Shown piece after piece: positions 32,948 through 55,297 of a stretch of DNA of 64,000 nucleotides. This DNA is from Candidatus Acidiferrales bacterium. Its GTDB lineage: Bacteria; Chloroflexota; Dormibacteria; Dormibacterales; Dormibacteraceae. The stretch spans positions 1,886-65,885 of the forward strand of contig DATKQJ010000027.1 in assembly GCA_035532785.1 (NCBI GenBank). Reading direction: 5' to 3'. How positions within the stretch are numbered: the first letter of the stretch is position 1; the number at the start of each line of letters is the position of its first letter. Both the position numbers and the translations under genes were made by a program. Below the pieces are notes generated by a model that was not told the origin of the DNA, did not search any database, and saw nothing but the letters and a program-made list of their open reading frames with translations.

Positions 32948-33314
32948 CTAGCAGCCCGTCCGAGTAAGACTTTGCGATAGGGATGGGCCGGGCCTGAGCT
33001 GCAGGCGAGGGCGTGTTATTGCTGTGTATTCGTGTCGCGCGCCGGGTGCGAGGCCGGTTTTCGGGCCTGGGAGTCGGTTGGAGTAGGCAATCTCGGTGCC
33101 GCCGGTCATCTCCAGGCGGCCTGCAGCTTGCAGAGGTTGTGGCCGGTGCAGTGGAGGAGCCATTCCGCCCGGCAGTTCTCCTCGCCTCGCAGTAACAACC
33201 GGACGTTGGTCTTGGTCGTAGGGCAGGTAGGTCTTCTGCATTGCCACATTGCCCCAGCCCTCGCGCGCGCGGGCGCGAACTCCCCGGCCTAGTCTTACTC
33301 GGACGGGCTGCTAG
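32948..33314. mobile_element. MITE-like, internally deleted IS remnant bounded by perfect 24-bp inverted repeats
   Basis: ctagcagcccgtccgagtaagact (32948-32971) is the exact reverse complement of agtcttactcggacgggctgctag (33291-33314). The outermost CTAG on each side could be a 4-bp target duplication. The interior holds a transposase C-terminal remnant. Confidence 0.6.
33106..33288 (-). pseudogene. transposase C-terminal remnant (IS1182/IS5-superfamily-like)
   Basis: The minus-strand frame reads ...TTKTNVRLLLRGEENCRAEWLLHCTGHNLCKLQAAWR*. This matches the conserved C-terminal pattern RF-LRG-xKV-xEW-L-C-xHNL-KL of IS1182-type DDE transposases. No N-terminal or catalytic part is present. Confidence 0.5.
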
Positions 33315-34306: not shown

Positions 34307-35661
34307 GTAGGCTCCGGCGCAGGGGCCGGGACGATGGCCGACACGAGATCGTGCAGATCGCCGGCCTGCTCGAGAGCGGCTACCGAGGCGGCGATCCGCC
34401 CGGCCGCGCCGGGGAGTGCCACCCGGCACAGATCATCCAACTTGCTGAAGAGCTCGGCATCGCTGAGTGGCCTGGCCAGGCCGCCCTTGGCGTTGACGAC
34501 GTGGGCTCGGAGACGGGATCCATCCTCCATGACGACCTCGAGGGCCGCCTCTTCTCGACCGAATTCCGGCTTGGGTCGCAATTCGATCCGGGCTCTCACG
34601 CGGCGGACGTCCTCCGATCGCACGCGCTCATCTGAATACTGGGACAGACCGGCGCTGCCATCCACCAGTCCAACGGCGACGCCATGCTGGGCCGAAAAGC
34701 GGGCTTCGAGCTCTCCCGAGGGGTCGGGCCGGTCCACCAGTTCCAGGAGGATGGGGTGGCAATCATAGAGAACCTGGGTCACCCTGGACGGATCCGAAAG
34801 CGATCCCGAGAGTTCTATCGCGGCGTCGATGCCAGGGTGGCAGACAACGCCGCACGGATAGGGCTTGTAGGTGTTCTGCAGCAGCTCCCATTCCCGGCCC
34901 AGCCCGGCGACCAAACGGTCGGGACTGTTTTCACGTGCCAGCACGGCGCAGAACCCGACCGGATCCTCGAACAGACCCCGGGGGGCGGTGAATCCGCTCG
35001 CGGCGAGGGTGGCGGCCAGGATTCCGTTGGCGGCCGACTTGCCGGGATGAAACGCCTTGGTGGGGGTTCCAAAAGCCTCCCGGTGCCCGAGCAGTTGGAC
35101 GGCTCCCAGCCCCATCGCAGAGGCCAATTGGGTTTGGTCCAAGCCGAGCACCAGGCCCGCACCGACCGCGCCGCCTATCGGGCCACAGGTGCTGCTCGGC
35201 TGCCATCCCTCCTCGTGATGGGCCGGGGCTATGGCCATGGCCACTCGAAGCACGGTTTCGCAAGCGAGCGCAAACGCGGTCAGGAATTGACTTCCGGTTG
35301 AGCGCCGCTGCATGGCCATGCCCAGCGTGGCCGCTAGCGCGACCGATCCGGCGTGAACATTGCCCGATGCGAGGTGTGTGTCGTCGAAATCATCGAGGTG
35401 CGCCGCCAAACCCGTGCAAATGGCCGCAAAGTGGAGGTCCGCATTATCGATTCGGCCGGGGATGGGCGCGAATGGCAAGCCGCCAACGCTCTCTGATACG
35501 CGCAGCACCTGGTCCACCGCCGGGTGTCCGCTGGAGCAGACGGCCGTGGCGATGGTGTTCAAGAGCGTGCGCTCGGCCTCGTGGCGCACCGGCGGCGGCA
35601 ATGGTTGGCGGGACAGCTCTTCAACGCCAAGGGCGAACTGGTCAGCCAGTGCCATCGTCAC
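34303..35661 (-). CDS. MmgE/PrpD family protein (2-methylcitrate dehydratase-like), full length
   Basis: 452 aa. HEAERTLLNTIATAVCSSGHP, LDDFDDTHLASGNVHAGSVALAATL and TYKPYPCGVVCHPGIDAA are typical N- and C-domain motifs. Confidence 0.85.
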   Translation of the reverse strand: MTMALADQFALGVEELSRQPLPPPVRHEAERTLLNTIATAVCSSGHPAVDQVLRVSESVGGLPFAPIPGRIDNADLHFAAICTGLAAHLDDFDDTHLASGNVHAGSVALAATLGMAMQRRSTGSQFLTAFALACETVLRVAMAIAPAHHEEGWQPSSTCGPIGGAVGAGLVLGLDQTQLASAMGLGAVQLLGHREAFGTPTKAFHPGKSAANGILAATLAASGFTAPRGLFEDPVGFCAVLARENSPDRLVAGLGREWELLQNTYKPYPCGVVCHPGIDAAIELSGSLSDPSRVTQVLYDCHPILLELVDRPDPSGELEARFSAQHGVAVGLVDGSAGLSQYSDERVRSEDVRRVRARIELRPKPEFGREEAALEVVMEDGSRLRAHVVNAKGGLARPLSDAELFSKLDDLCRVALPGAAGRIAASVAALEQAGDLHDLVSAIVPAPAPEPT

Positions 35662-36019: not shown

Positions 36020-36718
36020 TCACGCTGACTTCCGAGCGATCCTCACCCTCCATTCCCTTGGCCCCTCCTGCACGTATTCCCAACTGAATTGACCAGGCTG
36101 GGTCGCCTCCAGCTGGTAATAGAGCGGCTTGGGATCGTGGTCGTTGACCAGGGTCAGGGCCCCGCCGGACGCCATCTCGCCCAGTGTCTCGAAGATGAGT
36201 TCGTGACGGCGCGCCGGTGCCAGGGATCGGACGTCGAGGATCTCCGCGTTCTCACCCGTGCCACCGGTCGGCAACTCGGTCGGCTCAAAGTCGACAGCAC
36301 CCACCCGGTAGTTCACGTGCGAGGCCAGTTGGCCGCCGATGAAACATCGCTCGCGCGCCCGCTCGGCCGCGCCCCCATATTCGGTGGCTCGGGCGGCGTC
36401 GATCCCGCTGAAATTGGGATTGACCACAATGGCGCTGACCCGAGCGCTCGCGCCGGGATGGTCGGAGACGGTCCCTTCGACCTTGACGCCAATGCGGGAG
36501 GCGGGCAGCCGGGCCGCTTCCAGGATGGCGGCCAGGGTGGCCGTATAGCAGGAACCAACGGCACTGAGAAGCAGCTCTTCAGGATTGGTACCAGCCCCAA
36601 GCCCGCCCATGGAGGCCGGAGCCGAGACCTGAACGATCTCGCCGCCAGCATTGACACGGGCCCGACCGAGCCGGCCTCCAGACCAACTTATGTCACTGTG
36701 GAAGTTGAGCTCAGCCAT
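36020..36718 (-). CDS. OsmC-family domain fused to a C-terminal DUF2249 domain
   Basis: The N-terminal ~145 aa are OsmC-like: GTNPEELLLSAVGSCYTATLAAILEAA...RARERCFIGGQL, with two conserved Cys. The C-terminal 80 aa read ILDVRSLAPARRHELIFETLGEMASGGALTLVNDHDPKPLYYQLEATQPGQFSWEYVQEGPREWRVRIARK, the DUF2249 consensus. Confidence 0.85.
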   Translation of the reverse strand: MAELNFHSDISWSGGRLGRARVNAGGEIVQVSAPASMGGLGAGTNPEELLLSAVGSCYTATLAAILEAARLPASRIGVKVEGTVSDHPGASARVSAIVVNPNFSGIDAARATEYGGAAERARERCFIGGQLASHVNYRVGAVDFEPTELPTGGTGENAEILDVRSLAPARRHELIFETLGEMASGGALTLVNDHDPKPLYYQLEATQPGQFSWEYVQEGPREWRVRIARKSA

Positions 36719-36721
36719 GGA

Positions 36722-36973
36722 TTAGGAGCCCGACGTCTTGAAGTAGTCGGCGTTGATCTTGATGAAGTTCGTCCATTCTGCTGGAACCTCGTCCTCCGGA
36801 AAGATCGCGTCGACCGGGCAGGGGTCGACGCAGGCGCCACAGTCGATGCATTCATCCGGATCGATGTAGTACTGGTTGGCGGCATCATCGGTGTGGATGC
36901 AGTCGACCGGACACACCTCAACGCAGGAGGCGTCCTTGACGTCTATGCAGGGTTGGGTGATCACGTAGGCCAT
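36722..36973 (-). CDS. fdxA: 7Fe ferredoxin (3Fe-4S + 4Fe-4S, FdxA-type)
   Basis: MAYVITQPCIDVKDASCVEVCPVDCIH (C-x7-C-x3-CP) plus ECIDCGACVDPCPVDAI (CxxCxxCxxxCP). Only the last 83 codons of track ORF 36722..37615 are credible. Confidence 0.9.
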   Translation of the reverse strand: MAYVITQPCIDVKDASCVEVCPVDCIHTDDAANQYYIDPDECIDCGACVDPCPVDAIFPEDEVPAEWTNFIKINADYFKTSGS

Positions 36974-36977
36974 GGGC

Positions 36978-37853
36978 TTAGGACTCCTTGTGGGAATGGC
37001 CGCTCTCGTCTCCCGAGAGTCGGTGGTAGAGCTGGGTACGCTCCGACGCCGAAAGGCGCGCCAGGAGCGGAACGTAGACCTCGTTCTCCTTGGTGAAATG
37101 GACTTCAAGCAGAGCCTGCAGCCCATAGAGAAGACGGCGAAGCCGCTCTCGGTCGGACTCTGATAGTGTCCCCTGACCGACCTGGCCGAGCTCATCCACC
37201 ATCCGCCCCACGAAACGATGATCGACCGACATGGTTCGGGTCGCGCCGCCCACCGCTCGCAGCACGCTCTCGGCTGCCGGGTAGACCGACTTCTCCTCCT
37301 CCGCGGCGTGCGGGAGCAGGCCGTCGCGTAGAAAGCCCAGTACCTCCGCCAGGCCGGCGCGCAGATCGTCCGCCTCCAGCGAGGTGGCTTTGGCAGCCAG
37401 GTCTCCCAACTCCTCCAGCCGCGGGAAGAGCGCGCCGTGCTCGGAAAGGATGAGCGCCGCCGGGTCGGGGGCCGATGTTTCGTCCGGCCAGGTCCTGTCC
37501 TCGTGGGCGTGGTCGCCGGCCGCCGGCGGTGGGCTGACCACGTTGACCGCCACCAGCCGCCCACCCACGGCCCGCAGGCCGCGCGTCTGACCGGCGCCGA
37601 CCACGGCCACGTCACCGGCTCGAACCGACCGCACCTCGTCTCCGACCATGACCTGTCCGGTGCCTTCGACGATTGTCATCACCAGCCCGAGCGGCGGCGC
37701 GTGGGGTGGGATTTGCTGGCCGTCTTCGAGGGCGGCGACCACGACCCGGAATTGTTGGGTCTCGGCCAGGGTGCGGCGGCCGAAACCCTGGGTTGAGAAT
37801 TCGGCCAGGTCGACGACGCGTCCAACCAGGGCCAGCGCTGGGTCTGACGGCAT
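36978..37853 (-). CDS. cupin domain fused to hemerythrin-like (HHE cation-binding) domain
   Basis: The N-terminal ~110 aa have a cupin-like beta-barrel pattern (VVAALEDGQQIPPHAPPLGLVMTIVEGTGQVMVGDE...AGDVAVVGAG). The C-terminal ~165 aa carry SEH...PHAAEEE...VDH...VHFTKENE, a di-iron hemerythrin H/HxxxE pattern. Confidence 0.85.
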   Translation of the reverse strand: MPSDPALALVGRVVDLAEFSTQGFGRRTLAETQQFRVVVAALEDGQQIPPHAPPLGLVMTIVEGTGQVMVGDEVRSVRAGDVAVVGAGQTRGLRAVGGRLVAVNVVSPPPAAGDHAHEDRTWPDETSAPDPAALILSEHGALFPRLEELGDLAAKATSLEADDLRAGLAEVLGFLRDGLLPHAAEEEKSVYPAAESVLRAVGGATRTMSVDHRFVGRMVDELGQVGQGTLSESDRERLRRLLYGLQALLEVHFTKENEVYVPLLARLSASERTQLYHRLSGDESGHSHKES

Positions 37854-37854
37854 T

Positions 37855-38097
37855 TCAACCTCCCTCGCGGTGGAACACGACTCGAAAATCTCCGCCGCCC
37901 AGCGCGTCGGTCACGTGACCAAAACCCTTCGATTCCAACACCTGATAGAGCGGGATCGGGTCCAGGGGCGCGAGCAGTTCGAAGTCATCGTCCGCTCCCA
38001 ATCCGGCGACGGCCTTCATGATCGCGTCGAAGGGTTCCTCACCAGCAGCCATGATCGGCCTGACGTCCAGCGTTGTCATCGTCCTCTCCGCCTCCAT
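37855..38097 (-). CDS. DUF2249 domain protein (stand-alone)
   Basis: TLDVRPIMAAGEEPFDAIMKAVAGLGADDDFELLAPLDPIPLYQVLESKGFGHV... is a DUF2249-like pattern. Its start abuts the upstream stop and its stop lies 1 nt before the next gene. Confidence 0.75.
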   Translation of the reverse strand: MEAERTMTTLDVRPIMAAGEEPFDAIMKAVAGLGADDDFELLAPLDPIPLYQVLESKGFGHVTDALGGGDFRVVFHREGG

Positions 38098-38427
38098 TCA
38101 AATCCAGCCGATCGCCTCTTTGGCGCGATCACTCATCATCTCCGGTTCCCAGCGTGGCTCCCAGACCAGGTCGACCAGCACCTTATGGACTCCCGGGATC
38201 ATCATCAGGGATCGCTCCACAGCCTCTGGCATGCTGTCGCTCATGGGGCAGCCGGGCGTTGTCAAAGTCATCTCAACCTGAACCTCTCCCGAGTCTGCCT
38301 CGAGTTTGTAGACCAGCCCCAGGTCGACCAGGTTGACCCCCAATTCCGGATCGAGAACCCCTTCGAGCTGTTGCCAGGCCTCGGTCAGGATCAGGTCGTC
38401 GGGTATCCGCAGGCGGGCTTCGGTCAC
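38098..38427 (-). CDS. DUF59 / metal-sulfur cluster assembly factor (SufT/PaaD-like)
   Basis: VLDPELGVNLVDLGLVYKLE...VEMTLTTPGCPMSDSM is the DUF59 signature with the conserved Cys. It has a 4-nt overlap with the upstream membrane-protein gene. Confidence 0.85.
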   Translation of the reverse strand: MTEARLRIPDDLILTEAWQQLEGVLDPELGVNLVDLGLVYKLEADSGEVQVEMTLTTPGCPMSDSMPEAVERSLMMIPGVHKVLVDLVWEPRWEPEMMSDRAKEAIGWI

Positions 38428-39719
38428 GCCGTCGGCTCCAGGGAATCGGCCACGGCACGACCGCTAAGAGCCAGGGGCAGGGCCAAGCGGAAGACGTTCG
38501 CGACCAGGAGTAGAACGCCGCCCGCATAGACCGCGCCAGCGCCGCGCACCAAGGCCGCGTTGACCACCAGGAGGCCACTCAGAACGCCCACAAAACCGGT
38601 CAGGAGCAGTGCGAATGAGGACCAAGCCAGGCGCTCGTCGACCAGCTCCCGGAGCAGCGGCACGGGCCGATCGCCTGCCACGCCGCCGAAGCGATGCAGC
38701 CAGTTCAGGAAGGGCAGAATCTTATACGACTTGCCCGCGACCGCAAAGCCGAACCAACCCGCCAGGGCCGCGAAACCATAGGCCACCACCCAGCTTCGGC
38801 CAGGCTCGCGGCCGGCGGCCAACACCAGGCCCAACGACGCGGCCACCAGCAGCGCCGCCAGCGAGACGAAGGTATGCCACTGCTCAATCGAGAACTGCCT
38901 CCGACGCCGGGTTCGCAGCAGCAATCCCATGTCCAGAACGTGGAGGGCGGCAGAGATGGTGAGAACGGCCGCGAAAGCGCTCACGGCCAAACTTCCGGGA
39001 GCCGCCAGCAGACTCACGACCAGCCCTAGTAGGCCCACATTCCAGAGGCCGAGATTGGCCAGCGTCAAACCTTGGCCATGACCGCGAGCGAGCGCGAAAA
39101 GCTCGGTCAACTTGTAGGAGACGCCCATCAGGGTCAGACCCAACCAGCCCGCCAGACCCAAATGGACGTGGGCGGCCAGCATGGAATTGCTGACGTCAAA
39201 CCACTGGAAGCGCCAGTTGAGGGCGTAGACGAAGCCGAAGGCGATGGTCGCGACCAGCCAGACCAGCCCGGCGATCACGTAGAGCACGGTCGGGTGCCAG
39301 CGTGGAATGGTGGGGACGCTGCGGAACATCTGAACGCAGAAGTGCAGGATTGCCCCGACGGTGAGAGACCCGAAGATGGCGACTCCGCTCGTCCAGTTGA
39401 AGTAGAAACTGGGGATGAAGCCGACGACGCCGGCGCTCAGCACCCAGTAGTTCCAGCGGCCCAGGCGCGGCGAGTGCACGGTTCCGCCGAGGGCGACCGG
39501 AAACAGCTGGTAGAGCGCACCGAACATGGTCATGGTGATCCAGCCCAGCACGGCCAGATGGGTCAGAGCGAAGACCTGGGGATCGTCATTGGTGATGACC
39601 AAGACCGGGGCCAGCCAGACCACACCCAGAGCGAAGAGGGCAAAGGCCACCAGACCGGTGGCCAGATAGCGGCCGGGGAGGTCGGCCCCGGGCGATCGAG
39701 TCGCTTGGACGCCGATCAT
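38424..39719 (-). CDS. 12-TM integral membrane protein, distantly heme-copper-oxidase subunit I-like (function unknown)
   Basis: 431 aa with about 12 hydrophobic helices. The motif GW-x6-G-x2-Y-(Q/K)-(L/I) occurs three times at ~135-aa spacing (helices 2, 6, 10). An AAHVHLG H-x-H occurs in helix 6, with further intramembrane His residues. Confidence 0.7.
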   Translation of the reverse strand: MIGVQATRSPGADLPGRYLATGLVAFALFALGVVWLAPVLVITNDDPQVFALTHLAVLGWITMTMFGALYQLFPVALGGTVHSPRLGRWNYWVLSAGVVGFIPSFYFNWTSGVAIFGSLTVGAILHFCVQMFRSVPTIPRWHPTVLYVIAGLVWLVATIAFGFVYALNWRFQWFDVSNSMLAAHVHLGLAGWLGLTLMGVSYKLTELFALARGHGQGLTLANLGLWNVGLLGLVVSLLAAPGSLAVSAFAAVLTISAALHVLDMGLLLRTRRRRQFSIEQWHTFVSLAALLVAASLGLVLAAGREPGRSWVVAYGFAALAGWFGFAVAGKSYKILPFLNWLHRFGGVAGDRPVPLLRELVDERLAWSSFALLLTGFVGVLSGLLVVNAALVRGAGAVYAGGVLLLVANVFRLALPLALSGRAVADSLEPTA

Positions 39720-39789
39720 GCCAACTGAGTTCGACCGCGAATAATCACTGCCGTTCTAGTATGCATGTTTTTCATCGTACAATTGCTCA
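39720..39789. promoter_or_regulatory. AT-rich divergent promoter/operator region; candidate leaderless start for the ArsR-like gene
   Basis: ttctagtatgcatgtttttcatcgtacaattgctcaATG is strikingly AT-rich for this genome. TACAAT (39778-39783) ends 6 nt before the ATG at 39790, consistent with a leaderless transcript. It contains short palindromes ATGCAT and CAATTG. Confidence 0.35.
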
Positions 39790-40533
39790 ATGCCCGGTGA
39801 CCCCGCCCTCCTGACCCACAAGGCACTTTCCGACGTCAGCCGGTTCCGAATTCTGGAGGACCTGCGCGCGGCGGGGCCGATGGATTCCCGAGAACTCGGC
39901 CGCCGCATCGGTCTACATCCCAACACCGTCCGCTTCCACGTGGAGCAGCTCATCGAGGCCCACCTGGTGCACACCGTCACCGCCCCCATATCGGGACGCG
40001 GGCGCCCACGCGTCCTCTATCAGGCCGAGTCCGATCCCACCGATGAAGAGGAAGGCGGCTATCGACTTCTGGCCCAGATATTGGCCAGCTATCTCGCCAC
40101 CGTCGAGCAACCCAAGGCGGTGGCGGAGAGCGCTGGGCGAGCCTGGGGCGGTTACCTGGCCGCCAAGCCGCAACCCTACTCTGGAATCACTGGTGCCGAG
40201 GCGACGACCAAGATTGTTGAACTGTTCGGAGGGTTGGGCTTCATGCCCGAGGCCGTCGCCGCAGGATCGGATACCCGCGTCTTGCTCCACCGCTGCCCTT
40301 TCCGCGAGGTGGCCCAGTCACACCAGGACGTGGTTTGCGCCGTTCACCTGGGCATGCTGCGGGGCGCGCTGGCGGAGATGGGAGCGCCGCTTGATGCCAC
40401 CGACCTGGAGTCGTTCGTGGAGCCCAATTTATGCATCGCCCACCTATCTGGTCTGGATACCGATGGGCCTGGCTCGGGCGGCGCCAAGCGAACCCCGCCG
40501 ATGCGGTCGCGTTCGTCAGGGTCCGAATTCTAA
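39790..40533 (+). CDS. ArsR/SmtB-like winged-helix transcriptional regulator with C-terminal Cys/His-containing domain
   Basis: LSDVSRFRILEDLRAAGPMDSRELGRRIGLHPNTVRFHVEQLIEAHLV is the ArsR-type HTH. The C-terminal domain contains HRCPFREVAQSHQDVVCAVHLGML. Confidence 0.85.
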   Translation: MPGDPALLTHKALSDVSRFRILEDLRAAGPMDSRELGRRIGLHPNTVRFHVEQLIEAHLVHTVTAPISGRGRPRVLYQAESDPTDEEEGGYRLLAQILASYLATVEQPKAVAESAGRAWGGYLAAKPQPYSGITGAEATTKIVELFGGLGFMPEAVAAGSDTRVLLHRCPFREVAQSHQDVVCAVHLGMLRGALAEMGAPLDATDLESFVEPNLCIAHLSGLDTDGPGSGGAKRTPPMRSRSSGSEF

Positions 40534-47275: not shown

Positions 47276-47761
47276 ATGAGAATCAACTACGGCACGGAGA
47301 TGCCCGAGGCGCAGGAGGCGATGATCCACCTGCAGCATGTGGTTGAGGGCAGCGGACTGGAGCCAGGGCTGCTGGAACTGGTGAAGATTCGCGCCTCTCA
47401 GATCAATGGCTGCGCCTTCTGCCTCGACATGCACACCAAGGACGCCCTCGCCATCGGCGAAGAGCCTCAGCGTTTGCATTTGCTCGCTGCCTGGAGGGAG
47501 GCGCCCGGCTTCACGGTTCGAGAGAGGGCCGCGCTGGCGTGGTGTGAGAGCCTGACCCTCATAGCCGATACGGGGGCTCCGGACGCCACCTACGAGGAGG
47601 TCGCCGCGCGGTTCTCGCCGCGCGAGATGGTCGCCCTGACGACCGCCATCATCGTCATCAACGGTTGGAACCGGCTTGCGGTCGGTTTCCGTTCCCCGGT
47701 CGGGTCTTATCGCTCCAAGCGCCAACCGGCCCACCTGACTGAAGTTCCCACACACCAATGA
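47276..47761 (+). CDS. carboxymuconolactone decarboxylase family protein (AhpD-like alkylhydroperoxidase core)
   Basis: ATG 47276 follows AGGAGG. ELVKIRASQINGCAFCLDMHTKDA contains the AhpD-type CxxC...H motif. Confidence 0.85.
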   Translation: MRINYGTEMPEAQEAMIHLQHVVEGSGLEPGLLELVKIRASQINGCAFCLDMHTKDALAIGEEPQRLHLLAAWREAPGFTVRERAALAWCESLTLIADTGAPDATYEEVAARFSPREMVALTTAIIVINGWNRLAVGFRSPVGSYRSKRQPAHLTEVPTHQ

Positions 47762-48453
47762 GAGTGGTTCATCCAGCATCGATGGCCTCCTGGATCTACG
47801 CTGGCGCCCTCAGCCGATGGACGGCGGCTAGCTCGTCGCCCTGCGCGAAGAGGGGCTGATGACCGCAAGCCCTCGGGCGAGAGCTTGAGCTCGGACCTGG
47901 AGATGCGCTCCGGCAGCCTCGGGCCGGAGATCTCGCAGCGGTTCTTGAGGCGAGGAGTTTGTTGGACTACCGGCTGGTGCAACCGGTGCCTCATCCCCCG
48001 CCGGTGGGGACAGAGTTCCGGGTAGACCTCGGTGTAGGTCGCTCGAGAAGGTGACCTACGTTTCGGGATCCGGCGCCATCGCGGAGGCTGACCCTGGGCC
48101 ATCGCTCCCCCGTGGCCACCCTGGCCCGGGTCGTCACCCCGCCCACCGCGCTCCCAACGCCCTGGCGCTGAGGGGAATCGGACACACGGGGACCCCGGCC
48201 GTTCGCTGGCCCCCAGCGTGAGCGACGCTCCCGATTGGTTCTGTGAGTCCTCCGGGTTAAGGCCTGAGCGGAGGGCGCTGTGGATGCCTGGCCCCAGCCG
48301 CGGGCGTGGCCATCCGGACGTTCGGGGGCGCGTTGAAAAAAAGGCCTGAAATGGCAACCGCCGCCGCCGACTCGGATGCGGATAATGGAGTGGGCCCGAA
48401 CGTACGCAGGCGGCGGGCCCTCCGCTGTCGTCAGATGGAAGTCGAGTGGAGGG

Positions 48454-51400
48454 ATGGTGCCGGATCTGAAAAACTCGTTGCTCAAGGCCCACCAATTCTT
48501 CCGCCAGGGACCCGTATCGGCCGAGGGCTGGAGCGAGCTGGTGGCCAAGGACCGGGATTGGGAGTCGTTCTACCGGGACCGATGGCAGCACGACAAGGTG
48601 GTGCGCTCCACGCATGGCGTCAACTGCACCGGCTCCTGCTCCTGGAACGTCTACGTCAAGGACGGCCTTATCACCTGGGAGTCACAGGCGGTTGACTACC
48701 CCTCGGTGGGACCCGACATGCCCGAGTACGAGCCGCGCGGCTGCCCCCGAGGAGCCTCCTTCTCCTGGTACACCTACTCGCCCCTGAGGGTCAAGTACCC
48801 CTACGTACGGGGCAGCCTGCTGAAGATGTACCGGGAGGCTCTGATCCAGCATCCGGATCCTGTCGACGCCTGGGCCTCGATCGTCGAGGATCCCGAGCGC
48901 TCGGCACTTTACAAGTCGCAGCGCGGCAAGGGTGGTTTCGTGCGGGCGAGCTGGCAGGAGGCGCGGGAGATGGTCGCCGCCGCCCACGTTCATACGATCA
49001 AGAAGTACGGCCCCGATCGGGTCGCCGGGTTCTCCCCGATACCCGCCATGTCGCAGGTCTCTTACGCGGCCGGGACCCGATTCTTGTCGCTTATCGGTGG
49101 GGTCATCCTCAGCTTCTACGACTGGTATGCGGACTTGCCACCGGCTTCACCACAGGTCTTCGGCGACCAGACCGACGTGCCCGAATCGGGCGATTGGTGG
49201 AACGCCGGCTACCTGATCATCTGGGGTACCAACCTGCCCATCACGCGCACCCCCGACGCCCACTTCATGACCGAGGCCCGCTACCGAGGACAGAAGGTGG
49301 TCGTGGTGTCGCCCGACTACTCCGACCACACCAAGTTTGCGGACGATTGGCTGCCCGCCCAACCCGGCACCGACGGTGCCTTGGCCATGGCCATGGGGCA
49401 CGTGATCCTGAAGGAGTTCTACGTCGAGCGCGAGGTGCCCTACTTCCAGGATTACGCGCGCCGCTTCACCGACCTGCCCCTCCTCGTCACACTGCGCGAG
49501 CGAGAGGGGGCGTACGTGCCAGACCGATTCCTGCGCGCCTCCGACATTGGATCAGCGGAGGAGCACGCCGACTGGAAGACGGTCGTGTTCGACGAGGTGA
49601 CGCAGGCTCCGGCGGTGCTCAACGGTTCGGTCGGGCACCGCTACGGGCAGGAGGCGGGAAGGTGGAACCTCAAACTGGGGGCGGTGCGGCCGACGCTGAG
49701 CCTGTACGGCCAGGGCGGAGATGCGGCGCTGGTTGAGCTCCCGCGCTTCGACGTCGGCGACACCGAGGGGGGCGCTTCATTGTCACGGGGGGTGCCGACC
49801 CTGAGCATCGGTGGCCAACTCGTCACCACCGTCTTCGATCTCCTTCTGGCCAACTACGGGGTGAGCCGCGCCGGATTGCCCGGCCAGTGGCCCTCCGGAT
49901 ACGAGGACTCGGCTCCCTACACACCCGCCTGGCAGGAGGAGGTGACGTCGGTCGATGCCCGGCTCGCGACCAAGATCGCGCGCGAGTTCGCTCGCAACGC
50001 CGAGCTCACCGGCGGCAGATCGATGATCTGCATGGGGGCGGGAACCAATCATTGGTTTCACTCCGACCTCATCTACCGCAGCTTCCTGTCGCTGCTGACG
50101 CTGTGCGGGTGTCAGGGCGTGAACGGCGGAGGTTGGGCCCACTACGTCGGACAGGAGAAGGTTCGGCCCCTGACCGGCTGGCAGACGATGGCCTTCGCGC
50201 TCGACTGGGTCCGCCCCCCCCGCCACCAGGAGAGCACGCCCTGGTTCTATCTGATGACCGATCAATGGCGGTACGAGGCCTTCAGCGCCGAGGATCTGTC
50301 CTCCCCCCTGGGGCGTGGGCTCTTTCGGGGACGCCAGTTCGCCGATTGCAACGCGCTGGCGGTTCGCCTGGGATGGATGCCGTTCTACCCGAGCTTCGAT
50401 CGCAGCCCCCTGAGCGTGGTCGAGGAGGCGGAGAAATCCGGCACCGAGGTCGAAGAGTTCGTGGTCGAGGAGTTGAAGCAGGGTCGGCTCCACTTCGCGG
50501 CCGAAGACCCCGATGCGCCTCAGAACTGGCCGCGCGTTCTAACCGTGTGGCGCTCCAACCTGCTCGGATCATCCGGCAAGGGCCACGAATACTTCTTGAA
50601 ACACCTCCTGGGTACCACCGACCCCGCCGTGCGGGCGCCGGAGACGCCCCCCGAGCTCAGGCCTGAGGAGGTGGTCTGGCGGCAAGAGGCGCCGGTCGGG
50701 AAGCTCGATCTGCTGACCTCGATCGATTTTCGAATGACCTCCAACTGCCTCTTCTCGGACGTGGTGCTTCCGGCCGCCACCTGGTACGAGAAGTACGACA
50801 TCTCCTCGACCGACATGCACCCCTTTGTGCACTCCTTCAACCAGGCCATCCCGCCTCCCTGGGAGGCGAAGAGTGACTGGGATGCATTCAACCTGATCGC
50901 CGAGGACTTTTCGCGGCTGGCTGCAGGCCACCTGGGGGTCAGGAGGGACCTGATCGCCGCGCCTCTACTCCATGACACGCCGGATGAGATCGCACAGCCG
51001 ATGGGACGGGTTCTGGACTGGAAGGCGGGCGAGGTGGAGCCGATTCCGGGCCGGACCATGCCCAAGCTGGTGGTGGTTGAGCGCGACTACGCCGCCATCG
51101 CCGAAAAGATGAAGGCGGTGGGTCCGCTCTTGGACGAGCAGGGGAGCAGGATCAAGGGAGCCAGCTGGAAACCGACCGAGGAGATCGACTACCTCGCCCG
51201 CAAGCACGGGGTCGTCCGGGGAGGCGCGGCCGATGGCCGACCCCGCCTGGACCGGGCCGAGCAGGTCGCCGAAGCAATCCTGGTCCTTTCCGGAACCACC
51301 AACGGCCGCCTGGCGGTGGAGGGTTTCCGCTCCCTCGAGAAGCTGACCGGCCTGGAGCTGGCCGATCTGGCGCAGCCGAGGGAGGGAGACCGGATCAGCT

Positions 51401-52116
51401 TTGAGGACACCCAGGTCCAGCCCCGGACTGTGATCACGTCCCCGGAATGGTCTGGAATTGAGTCCCACGAGCGACGCTACTCGCCCTTCACCATCAATGT
51501 CGAGCGCGACAAGCCCTGGCACACCCTCAGTGGGCGCCAGCACTTTTACCTCGATCACGAGTGGATGCTGGAGCTTGGGGAAGGGCTACCGATCTTCAAA
51601 CCGCCGTTGCATTACGGTCGAGCCTATGGCGACCAGACCACCGGCGAGGCGGGGCGGCTGGAGATCACGCTCCGCTACCTGACTCCGCACTCCAAGTGGT
51701 CGATCCACTCCGAATACCAGGACAACATCCACATGCTGACCCTGTTTCGGGGCGGACCGGTGATCTGGCTCAGCCAGGAGGACGCGGCCACCATCGAAGT
51801 CAAGGACAACGATTGGGTGGAGGCGTTCAACCGCAACGGCGTCATATCCTGCCGGGCGGTGGTGACGCACCGCGTGCCCAAGGGGGTTTGCCTCATGTAC
51901 CACGCCAAAGACCGGCACCTGAACGTGCCCCTGACCGAGCTCCTCGGGAACCGGGGTGGCACAGACAATTCGCTGACTCGAATCGTCTGGAAGCCGACCC
52001 ATCTCATCGGCGGCTACGCACAACTCTCCTTCGGCTTCAACTACTACGGCCCCACCGGGTCCCAGCGCGATGAGTTGACGGTGATCCGCAAGCGCCAGTC
52101 GAAGGTGGTGTTCTAG
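48454..52116 (+). CDS. narG: respiratory nitrate reductase alpha subunit
   Basis: RDWESFYRDRWQHDKVVRSTHGVNCTGSCSWNVYVKDGLITWESQ is the H-x3-C-x3-C FS0 motif and the conserved NarG N-terminus. About 1220 aa of Mo-bisPGD enzyme follow. ATG 48454 was chosen because the upstream part of the track ORF has no NarG-like sequence. Confidence 0.97.
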   Translation: MVPDLKNSLLKAHQFFRQGPVSAEGWSELVAKDRDWESFYRDRWQHDKVVRSTHGVNCTGSCSWNVYVKDGLITWESQAVDYPSVGPDMPEYEPRGCPRGASFSWYTYSPLRVKYPYVRGSLLKMYREALIQHPDPVDAWASIVEDPERSALYKSQRGKGGFVRASWQEAREMVAAAHVHTIKKYGPDRVAGFSPIPAMSQVSYAAGTRFLSLIGGVILSFYDWYADLPPASPQVFGDQTDVPESGDWWNAGYLIIWGTNLPITRTPDAHFMTEARYRGQKVVVVSPDYSDHTKFADDWLPAQPGTDGALAMAMGHVILKEFYVEREVPYFQDYARRFTDLPLLVTLREREGAYVPDRFLRASDIGSAEEHADWKTVVFDEVTQAPAVLNGSVGHRYGQEAGRWNLKLGAVRPTLSLYGQGGDAALVELPRFDVGDTEGGASLSRGVPTLSIGGQLVTTVFDLLLANYGVSRAGLPGQWPSGYEDSAPYTPAWQEEVTSVDARLATKIAREFARNAELTGGRSMICMGAGTNHWFHSDLIYRSFLSLLTLCGCQGVNGGGWAHYVGQEKVRPLTGWQTMAFALDWVRPPRHQESTPWFYLMTDQWRYEAFSAEDLSSPLGRGLFRGRQFADCNALAVRLGWMPFYPSFDRSPLSVVEEAEKSGTEVEEFVVEELKQGRLHFAAEDPDAPQNWPRVLTVWRSNLLGSSGKGHEYFLKHLLGTTDPAVRAPETPPELRPEEVVWRQEAPVGKLDLLTSIDFRMTSNCLFSDVVLPAATWYEKYDISSTDMHPFVHSFNQAIPPPWEAKSDWDAFNLIAEDFSRLAAGHLGVRRDLIAAPLLHDTPDEIAQPMGRVLDWKAGEVEPIPGRTMPKLVVVERDYAAIAEKMKAVGPLLDEQGSRIKGASWKPTEEIDYLARKHGVVRGGAADGRPRLDRAEQVAEAILVLSGTTNGRLAVEGFRSLEKLTGLELADLAQPREGDRISFEDTQVQPRTVITSPEWSGIESHERRYSPFTINVERDKPWHTLSGRQHFYLDHEWMLELGEGLPIFKPPLHYGRAYGDQTTGEAGRLEITLRYLTPHSKWSIHSEYQDNIHMLTLFRGGPVIWLSQEDAATIEVKDNDWVEAFNRNGVISCRAVVTHRVPKGVCLMYHAKDRHLNVPLTELLGNRGGTDNSLTRIVWKPTHLIGGYAQLSFGFNYYGPTGSQRDELTVIRKRQSKVVF

Positions 52117-53670
52117 ATGCGAGTCAAAGCCCAGGTCGGCATGGTCATGAACCTCGACAAGTGCATCGGCTGCCACACCTGCAGCGTCACCTGCAAGCAG
52201 GTCTGGACCAATCGGCCGGGGACCGAATACGTCTGGTTCAACAACGTCGAGACCAAGCCCGGACTCGGCTACCCGCGCCTCTGGGAGGACAACGAGCGCT
52301 GGCGCGGGGGCTGGGAACTCGACAAGAAGGGCCGGCTGCGGCTCCGGGCCGGTGGCCAGCTGCACAAGCTTCTCAAGATCTTCTGGAATCCAGAGCTGCC
52401 CGGCCTCGACGATTACTACGAACCGTGGACCTACGACTACGAGAATCTGATCACAGCGCCGCTCTCCGAGCGAGACCCGGTCGTCCGCCCCCATTCCCAA
52501 CTGACCGGCAGGCAAATGGACCTGAAGCAGGGGCCGAACTGGGACGACGACCTGGCCGGGGCACCCGAGACGGCCGGGCAGGACCCCGATCTGATCGGCA
52601 TCCAAGAACACGTGAAACTCGCCTACGAGCAGGCTTTCATGTTCTACCTGCCCCGCATCTGCGAGCACTGCCTGAACCCCTCCTGTGTGGCTTCCTGCCC
52701 CTCGGGGGCCATGTACAAGCGCGAAGAAGATGGGATAGTGCTGGTCGATCAGGACAAGTGCCGAGGCTGGCGATTCTGCGTCAGCGGCTGTCCCTACAAG
52801 AAGGTCTACTTCAACCACAAGACGGGCAAGGCCGAGAAATGCACCCTCTGCTACCCGCGCATCGAGGCCGGGCTGCCCACCATCTGCTCGGAGACGTGCG
52901 TGGGCCGGATCCGCTACCTGGGCCTGGTCCTCTACGACGCCGACCGGGTGCTGGAGGCGGCCTCCACCCCCAACGAGAAGGACCTGCTGGATGCCCAGCG
53001 GAGCGTGTTCTTGGACCCCGAGGACCCGGACGTGAGGGCCCAGGCCAGTCGCGACGGCATTCCCGATGACTGGATCGAGCACGCGCGACGCTCACCGGTC
53101 TACGCACTGGCCATGCGCTATCGCGTTGCCCTGCCCCTGCACCCCGAATACCGGACCCTACCCATGGTTTGGTACGTGCCGCCGCTCTCGCCGGTGGTGA
53201 ACATGCTGGAGGGGGACGGCTATGAGGCCGATCCGGACGAGGTCTTTCCCGCCATCGACATGATGCGAATCCCGGTCGGGTATCTGGCCAACCTGCTCGC
53301 AGCCGGCGACGGCAAGGTCGTCACCTCCGTGCTCCGCCGGCTGGCGGCGATGCGCTCGTACATGCGCAAGCGGCAGGTTCTGGACGTCTCGGACTTCGAG
53401 GTCGCCCACGCCGTCGACATGGCCCCGTCCGAGCTCGAGGACATGTACCGCCTGCTGGCCATCGCCAAGTACGAGGACCGCTACGTGATCCCCAAGGCGC
53501 ACACCGAATTGGCTCAGCGGCTCTCCGAGTTGCAGGGCGCCTGCGGTCTCGACTTCGAGGGCGGTCCGGGCAATTGCGGCGCCCTACCGCGACCAGCCAA
53601 GTCTCTGAACGAAAACTTCATGCTGACTCGTCGGCTCCCGGTCGTCCGGCCAGACGGGGTCGGCGAATGA
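52117..53670 (+). CDS. narH: respiratory nitrate reductase beta subunit
   Basis: Four Cys clusters (CIGCHTCSVTCK, CEHCLNPSCVASCPSGA, CRGWRFCVSGCPY, CTLCYPRIEAG). It starts immediately after the narG stop. Confidence 0.97.
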   Translation: MRVKAQVGMVMNLDKCIGCHTCSVTCKQVWTNRPGTEYVWFNNVETKPGLGYPRLWEDNERWRGGWELDKKGRLRLRAGGQLHKLLKIFWNPELPGLDDYYEPWTYDYENLITAPLSERDPVVRPHSQLTGRQMDLKQGPNWDDDLAGAPETAGQDPDLIGIQEHVKLAYEQAFMFYLPRICEHCLNPSCVASCPSGAMYKREEDGIVLVDQDKCRGWRFCVSGCPYKKVYFNHKTGKAEKCTLCYPRIEAGLPTICSETCVGRIRYLGLVLYDADRVLEAASTPNEKDLLDAQRSVFLDPEDPDVRAQASRDGIPDDWIEHARRSPVYALAMRYRVALPLHPEYRTLPMVWYVPPLSPVVNMLEGDGYEADPDEVFPAIDMMRIPVGYLANLLAAGDGKVVTSVLRRLAAMRSYMRKRQVLDVSDFEVAHAVDMAPSELEDMYRLLAIAKYEDRYVIPKAHTELAQRLSELQGACGLDFEGGPGNCGALPRPAKSLNENFMLTRRLPVVRPDGVGE

Positions 53671-54308
53671 GGTGGCCGAGGGGCCGCCCCAAGCCGCCGT
53701 ACAAGCTGCTCTCGCTGCTGCTGCAATACCCTAGCGAGGAGATTCTGGAAGAGCGCACGGAGCTGGCGGAAGCCATCGCTGAGCTGCCGGCCTCGCCCGC
53801 TCGCGCGGCGCTGGAGCGCTTCTTCGCCCACTTTGGGGCGCTCCCGGCAGTGGAACTGCAGCAGGAATATGTGGCCACCTTCGACCTCCAGAAGCGCTCC
53901 AGCCTTTACCTTTCCTTCTACACCGAGGGGGATACCCGCAAGCGCGGCATGGCCCTGCTCCGGCTCAAGCACATCTATGGCGCTGCCGGCCTCCGCCTCG
54001 GCGGACGCGAGCTCCCCGACTACCTACCGGTGATGCTGGAGTTCGCGGAAATGGCGCCTGAGGGCCTAGGCGGCCGCATCCTGGCCGAGCATCGAACCGG
54101 GCTGGAGGTGCTGAGGTTGCACCTTCGGGAGTCCGAGAGCGCGTATGTGCACCTGCTGGAGGCGATCTGCATGGGACTGCCTCGGCTCCGCCTGGCCGAG
54201 CTGGAAAAGGCCAGGTCACTGCTCCAAGAAGGACCGCCGGACGAGCAGGTGGGTCTGCAGCCGTTCGCGCCGCCGGAGGTGATGCCGGCCATGGAAGCCC
54301 GGCGGTGA
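53667..54308 (+). CDS. narJ: nitrate reductase molybdenum cofactor assembly chaperone
   Basis: ATGA overlap with the narH stop. LLSLLLQYPSEE...QQEYVATFDLQKRSSLYLSFYTEGDTRKRG...LPDYLPVMLEF is the NarJ/TorD-like pattern. Confidence 0.9.
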   Translation: MRWPRGRPKPPYKLLSLLLQYPSEEILEERTELAEAIAELPASPARAALERFFAHFGALPAVELQQEYVATFDLQKRSSLYLSFYTEGDTRKRGMALLRLKHIYGAAGLRLGGRELPDYLPVMLEFAEMAPEGLGGRILAEHRTGLEVLRLHLRESESAYVHLLEAICMGLPRLRLAELEKARSLLQEGPPDEQVGLQPFAPPEVMPAMEARR

Positions 54309-55000
54309 GACTCGGCAGCACCTTCCTGTGGGTGGTCCTGCCCTACGCGGCGATGGTGCTCTTCGTGGCCGGCCACATTTGGCGATACCGACACGACAAA
54401 TTCGGTTGGACCTCGCGCTCGACCCAGATCCTGGAGAGCAGATGGCTGGCTTGGGGCAGCAATCTCTTCCACTATGGGGCGCTGGCGGCGATCGGCGGGC
54501 ACATCCTCGGCATGCTGGTTCCCAATTGGCTCACCGCGGCCGTCGGCGTCACCGAGTCGGACTACCACCTCGTCTCCGCCGGCGCGGGCACCGTGGCGGG
54601 GATCGCGTGCGTGGCCGGCTTGGTCATCCTGGCCCTCCGCCGGGCCTACTTCCCCCGCGTCCGCCGGACCACCTCCCCGACCGACCTGGCGGTCTACGTC
54701 CTGCTCGCCCTGGTGATCGGACTGGGCATGGGCGAGACGCTGATCGTCAACACCCTCGGCGGCGGCTATGACTACCGCTCCTCGGTGGCGATCTGGTTTC
54801 GTGGACTCCTGCTGCTTGACCCCAGAGCCGACCTGATGGCCTCAGCCCCGCTCGTCTATCAGGTCCACGCAACGGCCGCCTGGCTCCTCTACGCGCTCTG
54901 GCCGTTCAGCCGCCTCGTTCACGTCTGGAGCCTGCCCTGGCAATACGTGGGGCGACCCTACATCCTCTATCGCCGCCGCTACGCCAGCTCCCCGCGATGA
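54305..55000 (+). CDS. narI: respiratory nitrate reductase gamma subunit (di-heme b)
   Basis: GTGA overlap with narJ. Five TM helices with conserved His residues (VAGHIWRY, FHYGALAAIGGHILG, VYQVHATAAWLLYALWPFSRLVHVWS). Confidence 0.95.
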   Translation: MRLGSTFLWVVLPYAAMVLFVAGHIWRYRHDKFGWTSRSTQILESRWLAWGSNLFHYGALAAIGGHILGMLVPNWLTAAVGVTESDYHLVSAGAGTVAGIACVAGLVILALRRAYFPRVRRTTSPTDLAVYVLLALVIGLGMGETLIVNTLGGGYDYRSSVAIWFRGLLLLDPRADLMASAPLVYQVHATAAWLLYALWPFSRLVHVWSLPWQYVGRPYILYRRRYASSPR

Positions 55001-55230: not shown

Positions 55231-55297
55231 GGGTCGCCGCCGGCGTGCGCGGGCGGTCGAGGTGTCAGCAGGTGTCAAAACTCCGGCCTCGCCAACC

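Follow-up and report, generated by a model that had tools for sequence, protein, structure and literature searches.

Introduction

Microbes that respire nitrate or denitrify poison themselves with nitric oxide (NO). Genes that help them to cope, among them nnrS, dnrN/ytfE and COG4309, which we take to be the same family as DUF2249, have appeared in regulon predictions since 2005, and their mechanism is still obscure. Here we analyse a stretch of 64,000 nucleotides, referred to below as the window, from Candidatus Acidiferrales bacterium (contig DATKQJ010000027.1 of GenBank assembly GCA_035532785.1, positions 1,886 to 65,885), which GTDB places in the Dormibacteraceae. At positions 36020-40533 it carries six tightly packed genes for an unusual membrane protein of the heme-copper oxidase (HCO) fold and for redox and metal-centre proteins, together with a divergent regulator. 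Three of the six genes constitute a core that is found across phyla, repeatedly beside genes of N-oxide respiration.

Catalytic HCOs and nitric oxide reductases (NORs) have six conserved His residues, in transmembrane helices (TM) 2, 6, 7 (two) and 10 (two), which serve a low-spin heme, a high-spin heme and CuB or FeB. Pei, Li, Kinch and Grishin are said to have described, in 2014, three-unit "HCO homology" (HCOH) proteins, and reportedly predicted single-unit (4-TM) HCO-homology proteins as well. NnrS is a heme/copper membrane protein that protects Vibrio cholerae from NO stress, and we know of no pairing of NnrS with DUF59 or DUF2249. Its gene is found in NO-responsive regulons beside genes of denitrification and NO detoxification (PMC1274295; PMC3345576).

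According to a paper that cites them, Pei et al. 2014 linked DUF2249 to the HCO superfamily (PMC11218638). COG4309 was predicted to belong, in co-transcription with norB, to NnrR and NsrR regulons (PMC1274295). In Thermus thermophilus, DrpA, a single DUF2249 domain, and DrpB, a DUF1858 domain with two DUF2249 domains, are encoded downstream of nar, and anoxia plus nitrate induces them; DrpB is membrane-associated, loss of drpAB turns nar and dnr expression nitrate-independent, and NarG of the double mutant has about one tenth of its activity (PMC6282519). All four DUF2249 genes of Haloferax are induced under denitrification, and one of them is fused to an Fe-S carrier NTPase within the nar operon (PMC11218638). 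The DUF59 domain is regarded as an Fe-S assembly domain, as in SufT of Mycobacterium tuberculosis (PMC9045647).

On the regulatory side, the SufR-like COG2345 family combines the R-R-H motif of its winged helix-turn-helix (wHTH), a GRP AT-hook for AT-rich DNA and three cluster Cys, the fourth ligand, two positions past the second Cys, being Glu in SufR and His in ArnR (bioRxiv 10.64898/2025.12.26.696629). ArnR of Corynebacterium glutamicum, a [4Fe-4S] protein, represses narKGHJI and hmp until NO releases it (PMC12343034).

Results

The six genes run on the minus strand from 39719 to 36020, and the tight packing proposed in an earlier, sequence-only reading of the locus is evident from the open reading frames (ORFs) and their junctions. 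The first gene, for a 431-aa membrane protein that we call HCOH (38424..39719), overlaps by 4 nt (GTGA, 38427-38424) the gene for a 109-aa DUF59 protein (38098..38427). A stand-alone DUF2249 protein of 80 aa (37855..38097) follows with a gap of 0 nt (TGA then ATG at 38098/38097), and then come, after 1 nt, a 291-aa cupin-hemerythrin fusion (36978..37853), after 4 nt an 83-aa 7Fe FdxA-type ferredoxin (36722..36973) and after 3 nt an OsmC-DUF2249 fusion (36020..36718). The 0-nt junction belongs to the DUF2249 start at 38097; a second candidate ATG at 38079 would give 74 aa, and public gene calls on identical contigs use both. The gene for a 247-aa regulator (39790..40533, plus strand) starts 70 bp from the HCOH start and is divergent from it. 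The spacer between them (39720..39789), the sole AT-rich stretch of a region otherwise of 64-68 % GC, is a putative promoter/operator region, to judge by an inverted repeat, a conserved block and a promoter-like match described below. A terminator scan returned one terminator-like site, located inside a gene and below shuffled expectation. The arrangement is not a product of chance, because orthologous loci at 50-75 % protein identity retain the gene set. Profile hidden Markov model searches supported all of the earlier domain calls in Pfam or NCBIfam. The best homologues found carry the names Candidatus Dormibacteraceae or Dormibacterota, which assigns the window to that uncultured phylum.

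A scan of one genome per GTDB species gave 79 loci, in which the operon domains were mapped by iterated profile searches. The neighbourhood statistics draw on at most 80 of 231 confirmed genome hits and use domain positions from stop-to-stop ORFs, heuristic gene calling being noisy in very GC-rich loci (Gemmatimonadota, Myxococcota). Linkage was counted only where HCOH had 1.5 kb or more of sequence on either side, namely in 53 informative loci, 30 of them distant and 23 of Dormibacterota type. The distant loci (27-40 % identity) belong to Dehalococcoidia, Anaerolineae, Gemmatimonadota, Myxococcota, Verrucomicrobiota, Bacillota and Bacteroidota; HCOH is followed directly by DUF59 in 29 of the 30 and has DUF2249 within 1.5 kb in 28, and hemerythrin (5/30), OsmC (1/30) and the regulator (6/30) are rare. 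The 23 Dormibacterota-type loci have DUF59 (22), DUF2249 (22), hemerythrin (19), OsmC (17), the regulator (20) and the cupin (18). Therefore HCOH, DUF59 and DUF2249 form a cross-phylum core, and the cupin-hemerythrin, the 7Fe ferredoxin, the OsmC-DUF2249 fusion and the regulator are a Dormibacterota-wide extension. The six-gene combination of the sequence-only reading thus holds in Dormibacterota, its universal core being three of the six genes only. Two layouts occur among the Dormibacterota-type loci, that of the window and one in which the regulator gene heads DUF59, DUF2249, cupin/hemerythrin, OsmC/DUF2249 and, in some cases, ferredoxin, with HCOH divergent or 3-6 kb away; a linkage that outlasts such rearrangement argues for shared function. 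Small cupin genes accompany the core in other phyla too.

Some loci contain additional parts. A CopD/UPF0093-like small membrane protein is encoded inside the system in two unrelated phyla (locus L023, 11383-12120, minus strand; L064, 3503-3979, plus strand), and HCOH and the soluble module of L023 are separated by genes for a Rieske [2Fe-2S] protein and for another OsmC that stands alone.

Genes of N-oxide respiration and of the response to NO recur around the core. In eight Dormibacterota loci (L017, L019, L020, L023, L025, L033, L035, L067) narGHI directly adjoins HCOH, and in L017 and L020 narG comes directly after the module on the same strand; a NarGH-like pair is found about 1 kb downstream in nine Chloroflexota loci. 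Among 117 neighbour genes of the non-Dormibacterota loci the commonest encode cupredoxins (12+5), molybdopterin oxidoreductases (8), CRP/FNR regulators (8) and the NosZ propeller (7). An Anaerolineae locus (L045) reads nosZ-nosL-nosD-nosF-nosY, DUF2249-HCOH-DUF59, CRP/FNR, and then NarG-like, NarH-like and EB_dh genes. One from Verrucomicrobiales (L055) contains MFS, cupin, two DUF2249, HCOH, DUF59, YgbA_NO, NirK-cytochrome c and SCO1, and one from Bacteroidota (L064) an Rrf2 (NsrR-like) regulator, a DUF2249-ScdA_N-hemerythrin protein, the CopD-like protein, a hemerythrin, two DUF2249, HCOH and DUF59. The triple fusion of L064 (2557-3501, plus strand), located beside the Rrf2 regulator, is a RIC/ScdA protein that carries a His-type DUF2249 at its N terminus, and provides direct domain-fusion evidence for DUF2249 working with RIC.

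The window itself contains, as had been noted, a complete narGHJI respiratory nitrate reductase cluster (48376..55000, plus strand, from Pfam matches of the called genes) about 8 kb from the regulator gene. Though not adjacent to the operon, it is functionally linked to it via comparative genomics. Given that production of NO from nitrite by NarG is well established in enterobacteria and corynebacteria (PMC12343034), there is a physiological reason to keep the module with nar. A CMD/AhpD-like gene adjoins HCOH in L023 and DUF2249-Nfu_N/DUF59 in Alphaproteobacteria, and in the window it lies on the upstream side of narG (47276..47761, plus strand, C-A-F-C motif); its product seems to be another partner that recurs with the system. 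In Alicyclobacillus tolerans (L076) a gene for a VIT1-family iron transporter with an N-terminal extension of about 190 aa (10149-11372, plus strand) lies 0.6 kb downstream of a DUF2249x2-HCOH-DUF59 cluster, which links the core to iron handling in an organism that can be cultivated; a LysR gene is also present.

HCOH matches Pfam weakly and in part, with a COX1 hit over residues 36-110 only (E=1.3e-9) that aligns its TM2-3 to profile positions 330-403, the TM9-12 part of the oxidases, and a PDB sequence search with the HCOH profile returned nothing even at E<=1. An AlphaFold2 model built with 29 homologues (predicted local distance difference test score, pLDDT, 85.7; predicted template-modelling score, pTM, 0.87) has 12 long helices, and Foldseek relates it to CcoN of the cbb3 oxidase (3mk7_A) and NorB of cNOR (3o0r_B), with a template-modelling score (TM-score) of 0.75 at 12-16 % identity. 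The earlier description as an HCO-like 12-TM protein is therefore sustained by an HCO/NOR subunit I fold. The protein is internally triplicated, consisting of three homologous 4-helix units (E=3e-4 for each pair) whose repeat alignments match the motif GW-x6-G-x2-Y-(K/Q) in TM2, TM6 and TM10, and the family comprises 1769 clusters at 50 % identity (E<=1e-3).

Across 128 divergent representatives of the family exactly two His are invariant, H54 in TM2 and H184 in TM6, each 6-7 residues into an even-numbered helix, where HCO topology places a residue near the outer membrane face. Q71, R271, K333 and W340 are also conserved; H186 reaches 57 % and H282 23 %, and the sole TM10 His, H342, at the cytoplasmic end of the helix, 45 %. 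In the same representatives no conserved TM7 His was found and the TM10 His-x-His is absent. The family therefore has the 12-TM three-unit core of catalytic HCO/NOR subunit I and lacks its six-His ligand set, and since the TM7 pair and the TM10 His-x-His are missing, HCOH is an HCO fold that cannot hold a binuclear CuB/FeB site. Its predicted cofactor, following naturally from the two invariant His, is a single bis-His b-type heme. Identity as a catalytic NOR or oxidase was rejected on the absence of the metal ligands. Identity as NnrS was rejected too: none of 29 aligned family members matches Pfam NnrS (PF05940) at E<=1, and all 29 match COX1 weakly. The reported traits of the three-unit HCOH class are all found, namely 12 transmembrane helices, two conserved His and a denitrification/NO context.

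In several loci ORFs of about 130-200 aa that resemble parts of HCOH adjoin the full-length gene (L015 6680-7282; L017 4477-5730; L039 3759-4364; L053 6286-7182; L060 10825-11223; L061 11771-13722; several in L069 and L074). They may be single-unit (4-TM) HCO-homology proteins, or gene fragments.

The DUF59 protein, which is SufT-PaaD-like, belongs to Pfam FeS_assembly_P (E=1.8e-19, 70.2 bits against a cut-off of 23.5), and its C60, in a TTPGCP motif, is 100 % conserved; it falls below the cut-offs of the SUF_assoc and SufT equivalog models (TIGR02945, 107.1 against 143.4; TIGR03406, 100.9 against 202.6). Both DUF2249 domains exceed the PF10006 cut-off of 29.5 bits, the stand-alone protein with 53.0 bits (E=3.1e-14) and the OsmC-fused domain with 102.8 (E=8.6e-30), and they represent different subtypes. 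The stand-alone protein is of a non-His subtype with G-E-E-P (GEEPF) and P-L-D-P, the fused domain is His-type (R171-H172, N192-D-H194-D-P), and a third subtype with G-L-E-P-P-E-P occurs in other phyla. In every locus that has DUF2249, HCOH is accompanied by the non-His subtype. The OsmC-fused domain is 60-70 % identical to stand-alone proteins of about 80 aa in Alphaproteobacteria and Actinobacteria, an unusually strong conservation. In Aquamicrobium and Mesorhizobium (L085, L086) His-type DUF2249 is part of a CMD(AhpD-like)-DUF2249-Nfu_N/DUF59 cluster without HCOH, and therefore the pairing of DUF2249 with DUF59, along with a thiol-peroxidase-fold partner, recurs independently.

The model of the His-type DUF2249 (pLDDT 92) has the TusA/SirA/YeeD fold (TM-score about 0.7, root-mean-square deviation 2.4-2.6 A); the top Foldseek match is YeeD bound to the membrane transporter YeeE, with E-values that are weak (1e-2) for so small a domain. 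The catalytic C-P of TusA is replaced in this domain by R-R-H and the DDP loop by N-D-H-D-P, and Cys is absent from both window copies and from all subtypes inspected. We rejected a sulfur relay (persulfide or thiosulfate) by DUF2249 because the catalytic Cys is missing.

In the cupin-hemerythrin fusion the hemerythrin domain (residues ~131-264) is recognised by Pfam Hemerythrin at E=2.5e-18. The cupin (residues ~25-110) is recognised by AraC_binding (1.4e-6) and, just under the cut-off, by Cupin_2 (1.1e-5); it has cupin relatives in the PDB and lacks in its sequence the usual HxH...E metal motif. The di-iron ligands form a complete H, HxxxE, H, HxxxE set and are invariant (H139, H182-x3-E186, H212, H252-x3-E256). 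Among curated families RIC, DnrN and YtfE come closest, each scoring far under its cut-off (TIGR03652, 26.6 against 204.7 bits), and a cupin stands in place of the ScdA_N domain of true RIC proteins. Of the RIC/ScdA-type hemerythrin named earlier, the di-iron domain is thus present and membership of the RIC/YtfE/ScdA family is not. The ferredoxin matches Pfam Fer4 families and NCBIfam FdxA_Actino (E=6.5e-31); its 106.8 bits fall below the cut-off of 125 because the protein has 83 aa and the model 107 positions. Its cysteines (C9-x7-C17-x3-C21P ... C42-x2-C45-x2-C48-x3-C52P) follow the [3Fe-4S][4Fe-4S] pattern of 7Fe (FdxA) ferredoxins, with which we class it. The OsmC domain scores 50.7 bits in Pfam (cut-off 27.5, E=2.5e-13), matches Ohr/OsmC structures in the PDB and keeps the invariant catalytic Cys pair C57 and C125; it is an OsmC/Ohr protein that falls below the cut-offs of the subfamily models. 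Proteins of the Ohr/OsmC group reduce peroxynitrite.

The regulator, described earlier as ArsR-like, does have a winged helix (Pfam HTH_20, E=1.1e-8) and a C-terminal part with Cys and His, and it is not an ArsR metalloregulator. It matches SufR_cyano weakly (residues 21-195; 22 bits against a cut-off of 178.8), and 8 of 12 family members hit this model, with a best E of 8.6e-22. Its motifs are those of the SufR-like COG2345 family that includes ArnR: wHTH R48-F-H50, AT-hook G71-R72-P73, C169-x13-C183-x2-H186 and C215. R48, H50, G71-R72-P73, C169 and C183 are invariant in the family and C215 is at least 90 % conserved; position 186 is His in Dormibacterota members and Glu in Gemmatimonadota members. 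The 'regulator' row of L075 was a wrong-frame ORF and was removed from this comparison. A classical ArsR/SmtB metal sensor was rejected on the SufR-model matches and SufR/ArnR motifs, and SufR proper on its score and the lack of a suf operon; no suf genes were found near the operon in the annotated part of the window, which covers positions beyond about 30 kb. By its motifs, then, the regulator is a SufR/ArnR-type (COG2345) family member with C169, C183, H186 and C215 as predicted cluster ligands. In a protein search with the regulator profile, only close relatives were seen among the matches listed of 2483, and none was from Corynebacterium.

Within the spacer, an imperfect palindrome at 39773-39792 (CATCGTACAATTGCTCAATG) overlaps the ATG start codon of the regulator gene, a block ATTnTACGAT...GTGAaTAaT is conserved in the spacers of seven orthologous loci, and a promoter scan gave one weak promoter-like match (39718-39745, plus strand). 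The region upstream of narG is GC-rich, and the regulon here seems, from such sites, to be limited to the operon and the regulator itself.

Neighbours of the operon in the window are unrelated metabolic genes. Two tandem MmgE/PrpD-family genes (33311-35661, minus strand) lie 358 bp downstream of it, followed by phosphoenolpyruvate carboxylase; the pair is kept only in same-strain contigs, and nothing points to operon membership. A gene for a SLAC1/TehA-family anion channel (45731-46915, minus strand) lies between the operon and narG, and homologues adjoin narGHI in L010, L023, L025, L035 and L069. Since a transporter of the NarK type was not seen close to nar in the window, transport of nitrate/nitrite in Dormibacterota may fall to this channel. 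Directly after narGHJI, on the opposite strand, comes a type II NADH dehydrogenase gene (Pyr_redox_2/NDH2_C, ~55260-56520), and an ORF of 77 aa without annotation overlaps the end of narI (both seen in L084, 12881-14441).

Discussion

The suggestion that this operon is a membrane-anchored electron-transfer or repair module responding to NO or O2 during nitrate respiration had first been made from the letters of the window, and it is considerably strengthened by the context of the core across six phyla, which includes narGHI, nosZ, nirK, YgbA_NO, NsrR-type and CRP/FNR regulators and RIC. The explanation that we favour, and to which we give an even chance, is that the operon is a stress-inducible accessory of nitrate respiration and denitrification that most likely protects, repairs or re-metallates NO-damaged iron centres (Fe-S, heme, non-heme Fe), the damaging NO being a by-product of nitrate/nitrite reduction. 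The ligands of the hemerythrin, the OsmC Cys pair and the DUF59 Cys are all intact, in keeping with such a function.

The following course of events may be envisaged. A regulator with a [4Fe-4S] cluster on C169, C183, H186 and C215 would sit on the 70-bp spacer through its wHTH and GRP AT-hook and repress both promoters. The inducing signal would be NO, or another cluster-destroying stress, that nitrosylates or degrades the cluster, upon which the repressor would leave and the six products would be made in fixed ratios by translational coupling. At the membrane HCOH, with its putative single bis-His b-heme near the outer face and no catalytic binuclear site, might handle NO, or iron or NO-derived species as its substrate, as proposed for its distant relative NnrS. 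The cytoplasmic TusA-fold DUF2249 and the Cys-bearing DUF59 could act as docking, carrier or Fe-S-delivery partners, and the direction of any transfer could be either, DUF59 delivering or receiving Fe-S or iron. The RIC-like di-iron hemerythrin would carry out iron-centre repair or NO chemistry, the 7Fe ferredoxin would supply electrons, and the OsmC/Ohr-type thiol peroxidase would remove hydroperoxides or peroxynitrite.

Several points weigh against this explanation. The invariant His lie near the outer face and the partners are all cytoplasmic, leaving no simple ferredoxin-to-heme electron path evident. The operon and nar are 8 kb apart in the window with unrelated genes between them, and no N-oxide genes were seen nearby in the loci of Alicyclobacillus (L076) and Bacilli (L081). 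A second operator-like copy was not found in the window beyond chance, including upstream of narG. SufR-family regulators answer Fe-S demand and oxidants too, and NO need not be the specific inducer. Finally, the published Thermus model for DUF2249 proteins is one of signalling, not repair (PMC6282519).

A more specific version of the idea, which we put forward tentatively and consider unlikely, is that HCOH, DUF59 and DUF2249 are a widespread membrane-coupled machine, not recognised before, that accompanies N-oxide respiration, with the single-heme HCOH as conduit or sensor. A Cys-less DUF2249, whether His-bearing or acidic, would dock on HCOH as YeeD does on YeeE, and would give to the DUF59 carrier, or take from it, iron, a dinitrosyl-iron species or an Fe-S fragment. 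If true, NO-damaged iron would be removed or recycled by a biochemical route that is new, and DUF2249, the HCOH family and, by analogy, NnrS would gain a function.

Could the system instead be constitutive, inserting or maturing cofactors of N-oxide reductases, with DUF59, DUF2249 and ferredoxin delivering Fe-S or iron and HCOH handling heme for NarGHI and Nos-associated proteins? In L017 and L020 the core does directly precede narG on the same strand, the DUF59 domain serves in Fe-S assembly, a DUF2249-Fe-S-carrier NTPase is encoded inside the Haloferax nar operon (PMC11218638) and NarG of the Thermus drpAB mutant is largely inactive (PMC6282519). We nevertheless think it unlikely: the core is found equally beside nosZ and nirK, which encode copper enzymes, beside NsrR/RIC stress genes and in loci without any reductase, the known Nar chaperone NarJ is present, and a SufR/ArnR-type repressor of its own, a peroxidase and a RIC-like protein fit a damage response better than housekeeping assembly.

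A signalling module of the DrpA/DrpB kind, in which DUF2249 and HCOH, as a membrane sensor heme protein, would sense nitrate, nitrite, NO or O2 and tune N-oxide genes with no repair, we regard as distinctly unlikely. It would account for the unlinking of nar/dnr expression from nitrate in Thermus upon loss of drpAB and for the membrane association of DrpB (PMC6282519), CRP/FNR, Rrf2 and SufR-like regulators very often adjoin the core, and a single heme without catalytic partner suits a sensor. Against this, the window has neither a DUF1858 protein nor an output domain, and DUF59, the ferredoxin, the OsmC peroxidase and the complete di-iron site are parts of enzymes and carriers. The Alphaproteobacterial His-type DUF2249 keeps company with Nfu_N/DUF59 and an AhpD-like gene, with no regulator or N-oxide gene in view, and the Thermus double mutant lost NarG activity per protein too, which suggests more than regulation.

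That the operon serves general oxidative stress or iron homeostasis, its nearness to nar being incidental, appears quite improbable. OsmC, hemerythrin, DUF59 and SufR-like regulators also serve in oxidative and Fe-S stress, unrelated metabolic genes flank the operon in the window, and an iron transporter adjoins the core in Alicyclobacillus; N-oxide genes nonetheless adjoin the core time after time and independently of one another, in Dormibacterota, Chloroflexota, Gemmatimonadota/Myxococcota-type loci, Verrucomicrobiota and Bacteroidota, which is hard to explain by chance. Most improbable of all is a new catalytic NO or O2 reductase, in which the hemerythrin di-iron site or a DUF2249-bound metal would replace FeB/CuB and ferredoxin would be the donor: the fold (TM-score 0.75 to NorB and CcoN), the denitrification neighbourhoods and the presence of a ferredoxin and a di-iron protein speak for it, but the two invariant His are all that remain of the catalytic set, in most phyla the core comes without hemerythrin and ferredoxin, and the partners are cytoplasmic with the putative heme near the outer face.

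Work in silico had partly anticipated the components and the way they go with NO and denitrification (Rodionov 2005; Pei 2014), and the genetics of Thermus had done so for DUF2249. The statement of the sequence-only reading that no pathway has been assigned to the combination is accordingly right experimentally, and too broad insofar as parts had been flagged before, as HCOH proteins, as COG4309 (PMC1274295) and as DrpA/DrpB (PMC6282519). Neither a member of the HCOH family nor an HCOH-DUF59-DUF2249 system has so far been characterised, nor has an ArnR-like regulator from outside the actinobacteria; new here is the six-gene version with an ArnR-type regulator. The locus presents a clean, translationally coupled version of an NO-coping system with what would be its own ArnR-type Fe-S sensor, and its three-gene core spans six phyla or more and some 1,800 clusters of sequences. 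It offers testable handles, in the two His of HCOH, the one Cys of DUF59, the R-H / H-D-P site on the TusA fold and the 70-bp operator region, and it bears on anaerobic nitrate respiration in Dormibacterota, an uncultured and globally abundant soil phylum.

Compared with described systems, HCOH most resembles the HCOH proteins of Pei et al. 2014, with which it shares a 12-TM HCO/NOR fold of three 4-helix units, the closest sequence likeness to the TM9-12 part of COX1, two His, enough for one heme, a denitrification/NO context and the association with DUF2249 (via PMC11218638). Like NnrS it is a 12-TM membrane protein that is related to the HCOs and lacks a complete catalytic site; unlike NnrS, its family has no match to the Pfam NnrS model (0/29). 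The hemerythrin has the four-helix di-iron domain and full ligand set of RIC, YtfE, ScdA and DnrN, and differs in the replacement of ScdA_N by a cupin and in a score far below the equivalog cut-off.

With DrpA/DrpB, and with COG4309 by norB, the locus has in common small DUF2249 proteins encoded beside nar or nor; DrpA/DrpB are in addition expressed under anoxia plus nitrate and needed for normal function and regulation of nitrate reductase. The operon analysed here has no equivalent of the DUF1858 protein DrpB in Pfam, DUF2249 alone being shared, and genes for HCOH and DUF59 are absent from the drp operon of Thermus as it has been described. DUF2249 has the two-layer beta-alpha-beta-alpha-beta-beta fold of TusA and of YeeD(TsuB), whose complex with YeeE(TsuA) is a precedent for a TusA-fold protein docked on a membrane partner, and it differs from TusA in that the catalytic Cys of CPxP is replaced by R-R-H, G-E-E-P or E-P-P-E-P.

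The likeness of the regulator to ArnR is one of family (SufR_cyano matches) and motifs rather than of sequence alignment with ArnR. The two share the wHTH R-x-H, the GRP AT-hook, an AT-rich target region, the link to nitrate respiration and NO defence, and His, not Glu, two residues past the second Cys, and their Cys spacing is near-identical (C179-x13-C193-x29-C223 in ArnR, C169-x13-C183-x31-C215 here). They differ in position and in targets: ArnR sits downstream of narKGHJI and represses nar and hmp, whereas the regulator described here is divergent from the HCOH/DUF59 operon, or in other loci heads it, and has no operator copy at narG. Homologues of ArnR have been reported almost only in Actinobacteria, and the present family extends the SufR/ArnR regulators to Dormibacterota and Gemmatimonadota.

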